A DNA stretch of 32,000 nt from an uncultured archaeon (lineage in GTDB: Archaea; Asgardarchaeota; Thorarchaeia; Thorarchaeales; Thorarchaeaceae). The notes below the pieces were generated by a model. The model did not search any database, was not told the DNA's origin, and saw only the letters and a list, made by a program, of their open reading frames with translations. Location of the stretch: contig CAYHAA010000005.1 of the NCBI GenBank assembly GCA_964354495.1, positions 1 through 32,000 on the forward strand, in the 5' to 3' direction. Position numbers and translations under genes: made by a program. Shown here piece by piece: positions 22,437-25,778 of the stretch (position 1 is the first letter of the stretch; each line of letters starts with the position of its first letter).

Positions 22437-23171
22437 ATGGAAGACGATTGCACACAATGGGAACGGCTCGCCAATGAATTCTTGGAGAATAACAACTACT
22501 ACCAAGCCGCGAACCAATTCAAACAGGCTGCAAGTTGCTATCTCGATCGTGCACTCGAGATGACCAAGAAGGCTGCAGAGTATTACCATATGTATGCTGA
22601 GGACCGTGTTGAGAATGATGATCACAAGGCTGCCGCAACAGCCTACCTTGAGGCAGCCACTCAATATAGGCAAACGAGTGACTTTGCCACTGCTCTGACA
22701 TTGTATGAGAATGCTGCAAAGGAAGCCCTGCTTGAGAGGATGACAGAAACAGCCGCTCAGGCATATCTCTGGGCAGCCTTTTCGTGTCACAGGATAGGAA
22801 ACCGCGAGTACTTCTTGACATGCGCCCAAAACATGGGCAACCTCTATGACAAGGCAGCTGAGAAAGCCATCGACAATGGAAACGCAGAACGCGCCGTGAT
22901 TGATCTCTCACTTGCAGCCATGGCCTTTGCCACCATCGAGAGAATGGACAAGGCCAAAGAGAGAATCGAGAAGGCAAAGAAGATCATTGGAAGGACGACT
23001 TGGGACTGGCTGGAAACGCTCTTGGCCTTTAGTGAAAATCTTGCTCAGAATAGGCTTGAGGAAGCAGACGACCTTCTCAAGATCTTCAAGGAAGAAGAAG
23101 CCATCCAAGAAGTCATGGGTGCTTGTCTCAGTATCAGGGAAGAGATACAGAGGAAGCGTCGTCAGTCGTAG
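22437..23171 (+). CDS. All-helical TPR-like protein resembling alpha-SNAP/Sec17 (soluble NSF attachment protein)
   Basis: Repeated A-A-x-x-(F/Y)-x-x-A-A helices (YYQAANQFKQAASCY, HKAAATAYLEAATQY, TAAQAYLWAA). No signal peptide or TM helix. ATG follows GAGGT. Confidence 0.7.
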   Translation: MEDDCTQWERLANEFLENNNYYQAANQFKQAASCYLDRALEMTKKAAEYYHMYAEDRVENDDHKAAATAYLEAATQYRQTSDFATALTLYENAAKEALLERMTETAAQAYLWAAFSCHRIGNREYFLTCAQNMGNLYDKAAEKAIDNGNAERAVIDLSLAAMAFATIERMDKAKERIEKAKKIIGRTTWDWLETLLAFSENLAQNRLEEADDLLKIFKEEEAIQEVMGACLSIREEIQRKRRQS

Positions 23172-23175
23172 GGTC

Positions 23176-24426
23176 TTACCCAACTCGGACAAGAGCCGTC
23201 TTGGCAACCTCTTGACCAATTCTGCCATCCACTGCTTTGATCGTAACTAGCTCCTCACCTTGCTTGATGGCTCTCACAAAGATCTGAAAGTGCATTGTTT
23301 CCCCACTACCAAGAAAGTGGATTGTCTTCTCTTTGTTACCTAGGGAGATTTCAAGACCCTCGGACAGATTCGTTGTGATTACAATGTTATCGGCTGGGCC
23401 GTCTCCTACATTCTTCAGATTCACTTCAATGATGGCCTCGTCTCCGAGAGAGCAGGATACTCTCTCTGGCGACACCTTCAAGTCCAAGTCAGATGGTGCT
23501 CGTGCGATCATGAACTCGACCTTGTTACTGTGCTTATGGAGAAGGACCTTTTCACCTTCTAGAGTCACTGTATAAGGGCCGATAGTTCCTGAACCACTCA
23601 GAACGGGAGTGAACTCAATCAGCCAGGACTCGTTCTTTGAAGGGATTGATGAGAACTCTGGTTCTCTCTTCATGATGACACTATTAGAGAGAGATACTCG
23701 ATGATCAACTATTCTTACTTGAGTAGCACATTTGAACTGCAATTCCAATTCGATTGGAGTCTTCACGGGTACTTCATTCATTTCCTGACCTGCCCAGCTG
23801 AGGGTTATCTCTGTGTCAAGTGCAAGCCTGACGGAACCAACCACGAACTCCACGAGTGACTGCTCAGGTGCCGTTGCTTTTGCGCTTCGTGCAACCTTCT
23901 CGAAACTCTCCCTGGAAACATCAGCTCCCTCGCAAAGAATTTCCACGCACGATTCTGCCAGGTCATATATGGGATCAGTCTTCCCTGATAATTCACCAAC
24001 TCTCTTCTCTGCCTTCTTCAACAGGTTTGTTGCAGTCTCGTAGTTTCTTGCACCAAGATAGCCTATGACAGCCATCCCAATCGATCGGTTGGATGCACGC
24101 AGTTTCTTTTCGCGGTATAGATGGTCGGAGGACTCAGAATACAGTCCACCGCCCTCATCATATCGACCCTCCATGTTTAGGCATTCAGCAGCCAGTATTT
24201 TCATCTCAGCACATCTGGTGTGGTCGTTAGACTCGAGGGCAGTAAATGCTGCTTCGCGAAAGTACTTCACAGCAAAATCCATCTCATCTTCTTCAAGAAA
24301 CAGTCTTGCTGCCTTCTCAAACTCCACACTGGCATATTGGGGAAAACCCTCCTCAATCTCAATCAGAGCCTTCTCGACGTATTTCTTGGCTTTCTTTGTA
24401 GGGTCAGACTTCAGAAACTTGAACAT
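23176..24426 (-). CDS. SNAP-like TPR domain fused to two C-terminal Ig-like (DUF11/CARDB-like) beta-sandwiches
   Basis: N-terminal ~200 aa are helical (YASVEFEKAARLF, FAVKYFREAA). C-terminal region is beta-rich, with IEVNLKNVGDGPADNIVITTNLSEGLEI...LGSGET typical of DUF11/CARDB. No signal peptide. Confidence 0.7.
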   Translation of the reverse strand: MFKFLKSDPTKKAKKYVEKALIEIEEGFPQYASVEFEKAARLFLEEDEMDFAVKYFREAAFTALESNDHTRCAEMKILAAECLNMEGRYDEGGGLYSESSDHLYREKKLRASNRSIGMAVIGYLGARNYETATNLLKKAEKRVGELSGKTDPIYDLAESCVEILCEGADVSRESFEKVARSAKATAPEQSLVEFVVGSVRLALDTEITLSWAGQEMNEVPVKTPIELELQFKCATQVRIVDHRVSLSNSVIMKREPEFSSIPSKNESWLIEFTPVLSGSGTIGPYTVTLEGEKVLLHKHSNKVEFMIARAPSDLDLKVSPERVSCSLGDEAIIEVNLKNVGDGPADNIVITTNLSEGLEISLGNKEKTIHFLGSGETMHFQIFVRAIKQGEELVTIKAVDGRIGQEVAKTALVRVG

Positions 24427-24554
24427 CTATCCTAGCCTCATTGTCCTCTAAGCACTGAAATGAGGGAGAACTTCCGCTATATCGCTTTCGGCTCAAGGAC
24501 TAATCCTTTTCAGGTACGACCAAATCAAGAAGAGCACATCATTAGAGTGCAACA

Positions 24555-25778
24555 ATGGTGACGGCGAATATGACAGAACAACCTTACTACTGGGATGATC
24601 CACTCAGAGAAAGCTTTGATATTACCATTGATTCAATCATCGAAGCAAATGGCTACACCTATGTCAAGATACTTGAGAATGTAGTGAAGCCCTCTGGTGG
24701 AGGACAAGCTGGCGATAGAGGCTGCATTGAGATCGACGGAATGACCTACGAGTTCATAGACACAGTGCTACAGGATAATGTCACCTTGCTTCAGATGAAA
24801 CAGATTCCTCCATTCAAAGTGAATGCAGTCCTTACCATTGACATGGTGTGGCGAGGAGCTATGATGAGCAATCACACTTCAGAACACCTGTTTGTTGGGA
24901 CTCTGAAGAAGAAGCATCCTAACATCGAGCTTGGCAGAATCTGGATTGATGGAAACCGTGGTGCTGTAGAGCTTAAAGGAGGTTCCCTATCAATTGAGAA
25001 CATTCTTGAGGCCGAGTCGCAGGTGCAGAGGCACATTGAACTGGCAATTCCAGTGAAGTCGGAAGTCACTTCTGCAAGCGACCTCGATGAGTCCGTGAGA
25101 GCAAGAGAGGGAGTGACCTCCAAACATGACATAATTCGAATCGTCAGGGTTGGAGACCTTGATAGCTCTGCATGTGCTGGTATTCATGTCACAAATACCC
25201 GCGAGATTCGTGTCTTCAAGGTGACCGATGTCAAGAGTAGAGATAAGGACACACACATAGAGTTCCTTTCAGGTTCGACAGCTGTGGAATCTCTGTCCGG
25301 CGTGTACAATGCAGCACTGGTCAGAAAGTACTCATACCCATTCGAACTGGAACAACTGGGAGCCGTCTTGGACAAGGCGAAAGGACTACAGATGGCGCAT
25401 GAGGAGTTGCTGCAAGAGATCGTACAGCTGTTGATTGATGGACCGCATAGGGAGCAGATTGGATCTATTCGGTTCTGGCATGAGTATCTGCCGGGATTGG
25501 ATGCCAGTAGTTTGCGGAACATTATGAAACAGCTGCCTGAGAATGAACGCTCTGTGACCCTCTTGTTTGCTCCGGGTCCCAAATCCAGTCTCATCCTCTG
25601 GACCAACAGTATGCCCAAGAATGCATCCTTCTACATTCAGGAGCCGGTCATAGAACTAGGGGGTAATGGCGGAGGTAGCAAAGACTCATTCACAGGAGGA
25701 TTCGGCGACATCAAGAACCCTCTGGAGCTATATCAACAACTAGTCGAGAAAGTGAAGAAGAGAATCTTCGGCACATGA
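24555..25778 (+). CDS. alaX: Alanyl-tRNA editing protein AlaX (large type, with C-terminal DHHA1-like domain)
   Basis: PSGGGQAGDRG, zinc ligands HTSEH and CAGIH, and C-terminal GGNGGGS. Confidence 0.9.
   Translation: MVTANMTEQPYYWDDPLRESFDITIDSIIEANGYTYVKILENVVKPSGGGQAGDRGCIEIDGMTYEFIDTVLQDNVTLLQMKQIPPFKVNAVLTIDMVWRGAMMSNHTSEHLFVGTLKKKHPNIELGRIWIDGNRGAVELKGGSLSIENILEAESQVQRHIELAIPVKSEVTSASDLDESVRAREGVTSKHDIIRIVRVGDLDSSACAGIHVTNTREIRVFKVTDVKSRDKDTHIEFLSGSTAVESLSGVYNAALVRKYSYPFELEQLGAVLDKAKGLQMAHEELLQEIVQLLIDGPHREQIGSIRFWHEYLPGLDASSLRNIMKQLPENERSVTLLFAPGPKSSLILWTNSMPKNASFYIQEPVIELGGNGGGSKDSFTGGFGDIKNPLELYQQLVEKVKKRIFGT

Follow-up and report, generated by a model that had tools for sequence, protein, structure and literature searches.

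A SNAP-like helical domain joined to two immunoglobulin-like domains in a cytoplasmic protein family of Asgard archaea

Introduction

Do Asgard archaea hold relatives of the SNAP proteins and, if they do, what might such proteins be used for? SNAPs and NSF are viewed as innovations of eukaryotes that derive from an archaeal Cdc48, and SNARE-like proteins have been found in Heimdallarchaeota. In catalogues of eukaryotic signature proteins, helical-repeat proteins of the kind considered here tend to be passed over as "promiscuous TPR". The question is raised here by one gene of an uncultured archaeon of the family Thorarchaeaceae (assembly GCA_964354495.1), located at positions 23176..24426 on the minus strand of a stretch of 32,000 nucleotides (nt) that we call the window (contig CAYHAA010000005.1, positions 1 to 32,000). 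A preliminary description, made from the sequence alone, had read the product as a gamma-SNAP-like solenoid followed by two cytoplasmic immunoglobulin (Ig)-like domains, and had proposed a tether- or adaptor-like architecture recalling large TRAPP subunits and adaptin appendages. In this study, we have compared this protein of 416 amino acids (aa) with known families by fold, by profile and by genomic context. We conclude that its head is a truncated relative of the SNAPs and that the whole protein is probably a scaffold or adaptor rather than a working SNAP or a TRAPP subunit.

Results

The N-terminal half of the protein (residues 5-204; positions 23815..24414, minus strand) was modelled as an alpha-solenoid, in which antiparallel helical hairpins form a twisted sheet, with a helical bundle as its C-terminal cap, and is equivalent to SNAP/Sec17 residues ~88-290. 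In a fold search, gamma-SNAP and Sec17 ranked first and second among 48,161 chains, and in a second look at the fold the top ten matches were all SNAP, Sec17 or HAP40. Sequence comparisons also pointed to SNAPs. Specifically, a HMMER search of the PDB with the single protein returned gamma-SNAP as the best match of all (E 0.009, query residues 12-134 against 94-216), a profile built from Thorarchaeota members likewise returned gamma-SNAP as best (E 4.6e-4), and a profile of the broad family, which includes distant relatives, gave E-values of 6e-12 for Sec17, 6e-11 for gamma-SNAP and 1.7e-9 for alpha-SNAP. In the search with the broad-family profile, the sole score above those of the SNAPs was that of an engineered consensus TPR, and other natural TPR proteins were matched at 7.5e-8 or weaker. 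The best profile stretch aligned query residues 45-182 with Sec17 131-267, at an offset equal to that of the structural superposition, and it is this agreement between the registers of the fold search and the profile search that carries the claim of SNAP homology. The Pfam SNAP model (PF14938) was matched by 22/22 Thorarchaeota and 26 of the 29 broad-family members; distant members aligned with it co-linearly over hidden Markov model (HMM) positions ~88-262, and two of them exceeded its cut-off (30.6 and 27.1 bits versus 25). These comparisons of sequence and model show residues 1-200 to be a truncated homolog of the SNAP/Sec17 fold.

The SNAP-like solenoid of the preliminary description was therefore confirmed, and one of the two matches to gamma-SNAP that had been drawn by eye (EGRYDEGG... 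and MAVIGYLGARNYETA) coincides with the HMMER alignment given above. The other (YASVEFEKAARLF against a segment beginning SAASEY...) was non-significant at -0.5 bits, and its register was shifted by ~80 residues (two hairpins) relative to both the first-named match and the structural superposition, a slip that is typical of repeat proteins. Among the parts of the protein, the solenoid is the most conserved (76% mean column identity, or 0.76), followed by the first Ig-like domain (0.70), the second (0.68) and the bundle, which is the least conserved (0.54). Invariant positions of the solenoid are Y31, E37, K38, K54, R57, E58, R71, K76, D101, R127, N134, K138 and R142. A language-model-feature search of the Atlas with residues 1-205 returned scores that were all below 0.9 and are treated as leads only; these leads point to TPR proteins matching the SNAP model in Bathyarchaeota and Methanobacteriota too.

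The open reading frame (ORF) that encodes the protein is genuine. It comprises 416 codons plus a stop (at 23176-23178), according to the ORF list with its translation and to the homologs, and its product begins with MFKFLK; both start and length are backed by more than 100 homologs, nearly all of exactly 416 aa. AlphaFold2, run on a 22-member alignment, gave a model with a mean predicted local distance difference test score (pLDDT) of 91 and a predicted template-modelling score (pTM) of 0.74, in which ten helices (residues 9-204) precede two beta-sandwiches (206-308 and 314-415). The protein holds no signal peptide and no transmembrane segment (highest 19-residue Kyte-Doolittle mean 1.24), nor is a catalytic motif present; it is acidic, with an isoelectric point of 5.2, and its N-terminus is charged. 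It is thus a predicted soluble, cytoplasmic protein, and on the two sandwiches, the missing signal peptide and the cytoplasmic location the model and the hydropathy agree with what had been proposed from the sequence. A single contig of 247 nt from a wetland RNA library falls on positions 23306-23548 at ~98% identity, which is a weak hint, and no proof, that the gene is transcribed.

The two Ig-like beta-sandwiches occupy residues 205-312 (Ig1; positions 23491..23814, minus strand) and residues 313-416 (Ig2, of DUF11/CARDB/MG type; positions 23179..23490, minus strand). When Ig1 was folded alone, cohesin, MG, TRAP-beta, TRAPPII and the adaptin ear were matched about equally weakly, and no specific match to any family was obtained for this domain. 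The gamma-adaptin ear was reached at E 2e-3 amid a long list of generic Ig1 matches, Alpha_adaptinC2 was weakly matched by four distant members, and the platform (TBP-like) subdomain of the adaptin appendage is not in the AlphaFold2 model. The family profile found Ig2 up to 25 times in very large proteins, with E down to 7e-35, and the six large Ig2-repeat proteins that were scanned are DUF11/CARDB proteins. Since DUF11 repeats cross-match the TRAP-beta, transglutaminase-C, HYDIN-type and ASH models, Ig families blur into one superfamily at the profile level. As judged by sequence and model, both Ig domains are generic and Ig2 is of DUF11/CARDB type, which is common to bacterial surface proteins; the coat- or tether-like modules that had been suggested at first were not supported. 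Both Ig2 and the Ig tandem resemble the DUF11/CARDB repeat proteins by profile and structure, with template-modelling (TM) scores of 0.38-0.48 over residues 205-416. Those proteins are exported and carry many repeats, as in chlamydial OmcB and planctomycete surface proteins, whereas the 416-aa protein is predicted to be cytoplasmic and joins just two Ig domains to a SNAP-like head.

How widely is this architecture distributed? A search of 5.8 billion proteins retrieved 173 relatives, almost all of exactly 416 aa, and the named ones belong to Thorarchaeota, Sifarchaeia, Hermodarchaeota or Promethearchaeota. When each prokaryotic species was represented by a single genome, a scan yielded 68 loci at 43-94% identity, all of them from Asgard archaea and nearly all from Thorarchaeota, and the gene was single copy in 68/68 Thorarchaeota species loci. 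The alignment of 22 members showed a mean column identity of 66% with zero internal gaps. Beyond these close relatives, a representative search returned ~35 clusters of full-length relatives (410-450 aa, 15-21% identical), and every named cluster was from Asgard archaea (Promethearchaeota, Hodarchaeota, Heimdallarchaeota, Helarchaeota and Ranarchaeia). A sister cluster in the ESM Atlas has 109 archaeal members and a TM score of 0.74 over 399 residues. At E <= 1e-6, the broad profile found a match in 380 of 400 Asgard species genomes, a figure that overstates the family because the five weak-hit genomes that were inspected hold partial matches, either head-only or Ig-only. Strong full-length matches (E < 1e-20; counted from the table) were present in ~280 of the 400 genomes, roughly 70%, and span ~15 of the 33 sampled Asgard families; none was found in four small, complete genomes of one Asgard family. 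In the most heavily sampled Asgard family, 134 of 135 genomes carry a member. A family-profile search of the archaeon's own genome gave no second full-length copy. These searches located the full-length architecture in Asgard archaea alone; the outcome that would have refuted the preliminary description, matches confined to generic bacterial TPR+DUF11 proteins widespread outside Asgard archaea, did not arise. Our search of the literature on Asgard SNAP, Sec17 and large TRAPP subunits returned no description of this family.

The combination of a helical head with an Ig domain is one that recurs in Asgard archaea, because the same genome also holds a 567-aa protein in which a DUF11-type Ig domain homologous to Ig2 (hhalign probability 95%, E 2e-8) follows directly after a helical head of ~225 aa. 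This second protein is encoded on the same contig (C5), ~78 kb downstream (L078 706-2409, minus strand), and consists of a helical head, an Ig domain and a coiled coil. It differs from the 416-aa protein in that it carries one Ig domain rather than two and ends in a coiled-coil tail of ~230 aa, and the heads of the two proteins are not detectably alike by BLAST. In another Asgard genome, a 673-aa ORF (G055:C4:495871-496734) was matched by the family profile on the head (24-180) and on Ig2 (311-391), which suggests a further, longer head-plus-Ig variant.

The genes next to the 416-aa gene were then considered as a source of partners. A convergent neighbour (22437..23171, plus strand) encodes a stand-alone SNAP-like helical protein of 244 aa, whose stop codon lies 4 nt from that of the 416-aa gene. 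This tail-to-tail arrangement was observed at 61/61 Thorarchaeota loci having DNA there, with stops 4-15 nt apart. In a search of the PDB, the profile of the 244-aa family reached alpha-SNAP at E 0.002, and the protein is weakly related to the 416-aa solenoid (hhalign probability 55%, E 1e-4). It is also the better conserved of the two proteins (63-98% versus 43-94% identity; mean column identity 76%). On the one hand, the constant arrangement, the SNAP-like nature of both proteins and the higher conservation of the neighbour argue that the two are halves of a fixed two-protein unit in Thorarchaeota, which would be compatible with a scaffolding role for the 416-aa protein. On the other hand, synteny extends throughout the class along the entire stretch from ProRS and HMG-CoA reductase to AlaX and Nre, so that the adjacency may be inherited gene order, and the genes are convergent and hence not co-transcribed. 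Moreover, a search of five genomes, of which four are of Loki type and keep the 416-aa family, gave no member of the 244-aa family, although this negative shows little, and no 244-aa gene stands beside the loci of Loki-type and Hod-type relatives. The 244-aa family seems confined to Thorarchaeota. A complex prediction for the two proteins gave a score of 0.00, which is no verdict and was used neither way. Because of the class-wide synteny, the convergent orientation and the Loki-type genomes in which the 244-aa family was not found, we treat the pairing as suggestive and a fixed unit of the two proteins as unlikely.

On its other side, the 416-aa gene has as its divergent neighbour a gene for an AlaX-like protein with a tRNA_SAD domain (24555-25778, plus strand), which was present at 66/68 Thorarchaeota loci. 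The gap of 128 nt between the two start codons (24427-24554) must hold the promoters of both genes. The context in Thorarchaeota is of a housekeeping kind, with HMG-CoA reductase, the 244-aa SNAP-like gene and the AlaX-like gene, and that in Loki-type genomes comprises OMP decarboxylase, an Fe-S protein and a thymidine/AMP-phosphorylase-like gene, with no neighbours shared between the two contexts. Eighteen further loci, together with the Loki-type and Hod-type loci (L079, L080), display a different housekeeping array that is common to most of them. This co-directional array (L079, L084-L101), labelled by the Pfam matches at L079, runs through OMP decarboxylase, a small unknown protein, a small FAD/NAD-binding-like protein, a 446-aa Fe-S protein, the ortholog of the 416-aa gene and the thymidine/AMP-phosphorylase-like gene.

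If the head is a SNAP homolog, does the protein work as a SNAP does? Sec17 works by means of a hydrophobic loop near its N-terminus (F21/M22) that enters the membrane, a concave SNARE-binding face that places K159 on the SNARE zero layer, and a C-terminal domain in which L291/L292 stimulate Sec18 (PMC5643095). The membrane loop has no counterpart in the 416-aa protein, since fold and profile alignments both place the start of the domain at a point equivalent to SNAP residue ~88; the first ~85 residues of SNAPs (alpha/beta/gamma-SNAP and Sec17; PF14938), with the first two hairpins and the loop, are missing. By residue count on the profile HMM alignment, Glu74 aligns with the zero-layer lysine K159, a placement that depends on the alignment, and gamma-SNAP is likewise charge-reversed at this position (PMC5643095). 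Where SNAPs end in a free C-terminal Leu tail, the modelled bundle of the 416-aa protein stops at residue 204 and is followed, in the same chain, by the two Ig-like domains. The bundle, which contacts NSF in SNAPs, is here the part with the lowest conservation. The 416-aa protein also differs from the SNAP family in its archaeal host and in a PF14938 score below the cut-off. We conclude that it is probably not a working equivalent of alpha-SNAP.

The N-terminal tip of the protein, a short hydrophobic/basic motif (residues 1-10, M-F-K-F-L-K-x-D-P; positions 24397..24426, minus strand), was modelled as disordered, with pLDDT below 50 for residues 1-5. Among the 22 Thorarchaeota sequences, M1, F4 and K6 are each kept in at least 90%, and D8 and P9 are invariant. 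A tip-like pattern of hydrophobics, one basic residue and a proline was also observed in Heimdall/Hod-type relatives, and an MFKFLK-type tip is missing from most Loki-type relatives. The tip is not homologous to the SNAP membrane loop, yet it may still touch a membrane, as had been proposed in the preliminary description. The same residues also give a weak match (E 0.0012; 16/22 members) to positions 1-21 of Pfam DUF6435, a family of unknown function with a model of 53 positions, in common with which they have a start Met, hydrophobics, a Lys and Asp-Pro.

A broader functional analogy with SNAPs may be conceived, in which the 416-aa protein would be an archaeal counterpart whose solenoid attaches, at the membrane, to a coiled-coil complex of SNARE-like or another kind and recruits a Cdc48-type AAA+ ATPase for its disassembly, the Ig tandem replacing the C-terminal tail of SNAPs as the handle for the ATPase. 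The homology of the solenoid to SNAP/Sec17 and the conservation of a hydrophobic tip in Thorarchaeota and Heimdall/Hod-type members are in favour of such a role. So is a 2026 preprint in which Heimdall SNARE-like complexes resist mouse NSF and archaeal Cdc48 is suggested in its place, with no adaptor named (10.64898/2026.10.19.760048). Nevertheless, the lack of the first ~85 SNAP residues, the glutamate at the zero-layer position, the absence of a free Leu tail and the poorly conserved bundle are all at odds with it, and linkage to Cdc48 was seen in no neighbourhood, either in Thorarchaeota or at the further Asgard loci. We regard this role as distinctly unlikely.

The resemblance to TRAPP subunits arose when the full-length model was compared with Foldseek. 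TRAPPC9/Trs120, TRAPPC10/Trs130, TRAPPC8 and TRAPPC11 come first, within the top eleven ranks, among 550,129 Swiss-Prot models, with alignments that cover residues 8-416 at E 1e-13 to 1e-11; behind the family's own entries, TRAPPC11, TRAPPC8 and TRAPPC9 dominate among the 2.3 million fold clusters of AFDB; and yeast TRAPPII is the top match in the PDB. Large TRAPP subunits have a TPR-then-ASH/Ig layout (PMC4094338), and TRAPPC8/9/10/11 (Trs85/120/130) share with the 416-aa protein the order of an alpha-solenoid followed by Ig-like sandwiches. In addition, PF23643 (TRAPPC13_C) was weakly matched by 9 of the 29 broad-family members, always on Ig2 and with a best E of 4.8e-5, and Bet3-like TRAPP proteins are encoded in the same genome. 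These observations are what would be expected of a small archaeal relative of TRAPPC8/9/10/11 or TRAPPC13 that acts with Bet3-like proteins and small GTPases.

However, the superpositions on TRAPP are poor (TM 0.2-0.3, root-mean-square deviation 17-24 Å), TRAPPII chains do not reach the 50 highest Z scores when the fold is looked at a second time, and a TPR protein without TRAPP annotation, taken as prokaryotic, outranks every TRAPP entry in the AFDB clusters. The 25 Pfam families that are most often matched (E <= 1) include none of TRAPPC8/9/10/11, either for the 22 Thorarchaeota or for the 29 broad-family members. These subunits are about three times larger than the 416-aa protein and show no match to it at the sequence level, where its solenoid is SNAP-like, its Ig domains are generic and Ig2 is DUF11-like. 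As for TRAPPC13_C, the three matches that were inspected scored 17-19 bits against a cut-off of 27.9 and were accompanied by comparably weak ones to TRAP_beta, DUF11 and Transglut_C, the 416-aa protein itself gave no match, and the Ig signal extends over the superfamily, as the cross-matches of DUF11 to ASH, HYDIN, TRAP-beta and transglutaminase Ig models illustrate. The Bet3-like genes, moreover, lie on a different contig. Of the TRAPP-like architecture that had been proposed, the domain order and the full-length Foldseek ranks stand, and a match to TRAPPC8/9/10/11 families among the 25 most-matched does not. Multi-domain flexibility could mask a true structural relation; as it is, the likeness to TRAPP is a weak one of shared order among common modules and not a demonstrable kinship, and the top Foldseek rank should be read with caution, as a reflection of domain order here. 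The 416-aa protein is very probably not a TRAPP subunit, and true kinship with the large subunits or TRAPPC13 is highly unlikely.

The Bet3-type genes of this genome are found on contig C1 (~118.8-123.7 kb; L081 13769-18684) in two consecutive look-alike gene sets. Each set consists of a protein of 315 or 344 aa with a weak match to the winged-helix family HTH_47, followed by a Bet3-type TRAPP protein of 171 or 163 aa (26.1 and 40.3 bits); a 172-aa unknown protein comes after the first set and a V4R protein after the second. A 611-aa protein encoded ~10 kb away (L081 2138-3973) passes the Pfam SNAP cut-off at 43.7 bits.

Discussion

What, then, is the most plausible role of this protein? We consider it reasonably probable that the 416-aa protein is a soluble, cytoplasmic bridging scaffold or adaptor, representative of an Asgard-wide family in which the SNAP fold would have been reused as a scaffold. 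The conserved surface of the solenoid would hold a helical or extended partner, in the way that SNARE bundles are held by SNAPs and huntingtin by the SNAP-derived HAP40. A second surface, for protein binding or for self-association, would be provided by the Ig tandem, and two partners would thus be bridged. In Thorarchaeota, the hydrophobic/basic tip may add a weak contact with a membrane or with a partner. The closest precedent for the SNAP fold as a scaffold is huntingtin-associated protein 40 (HAP40; PDB 6x9o, 8vlx). HAP40 is a SNAP-derived scaffold of animals/unikonts that has no Ig domains and has huntingtin as its partner.

Several points weigh against this interpretation. With regard to the head, the 416-aa protein itself scores 16.8 bits on the Pfam SNAP model, under the cut-off of 25, and this model rings in 10 of 14 control genomes and awards 42.6 bits to a canonical TPR protein encoded in the same genome. 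Since it also matches ordinary TPR proteins, hits to the Pfam SNAP model alone are weak and insufficient. With regard to the function, helical-repeat proteins that carry Ig domains are read as scaffolds by default, and the binding attributed to this one is putative. The genomic context gives no functional clue, because the neighbourhoods are of a housekeeping kind and differ between groups.

A more far-reaching interpretation would be that this Asgard-wide family, together with the SNAP-like relatives in the same genomes, represents the archaeal stock from which eukaryotic SNAPs came, and that it already served as an adaptor between a Cdc48-type unfoldase and coiled-coil (SNARE-like) complexes at membranes. 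We consider this quite improbable. If true, the family would supply the adaptor that is missing from a cycle in which complexes were assembled and taken apart before eukaryotes arose. A well-conserved Asgard protein with a SNAP-homologous head is, in any event, a concrete candidate for the question of how Heimdall SNARE-like complexes are disassembled, and the stand-alone and coiled-coil relatives in the same genome are candidates too. Even if the 416-aa protein is only a scaffold, its head shows that in Asgard archaea the SNAP fold is older than eukaryotes.

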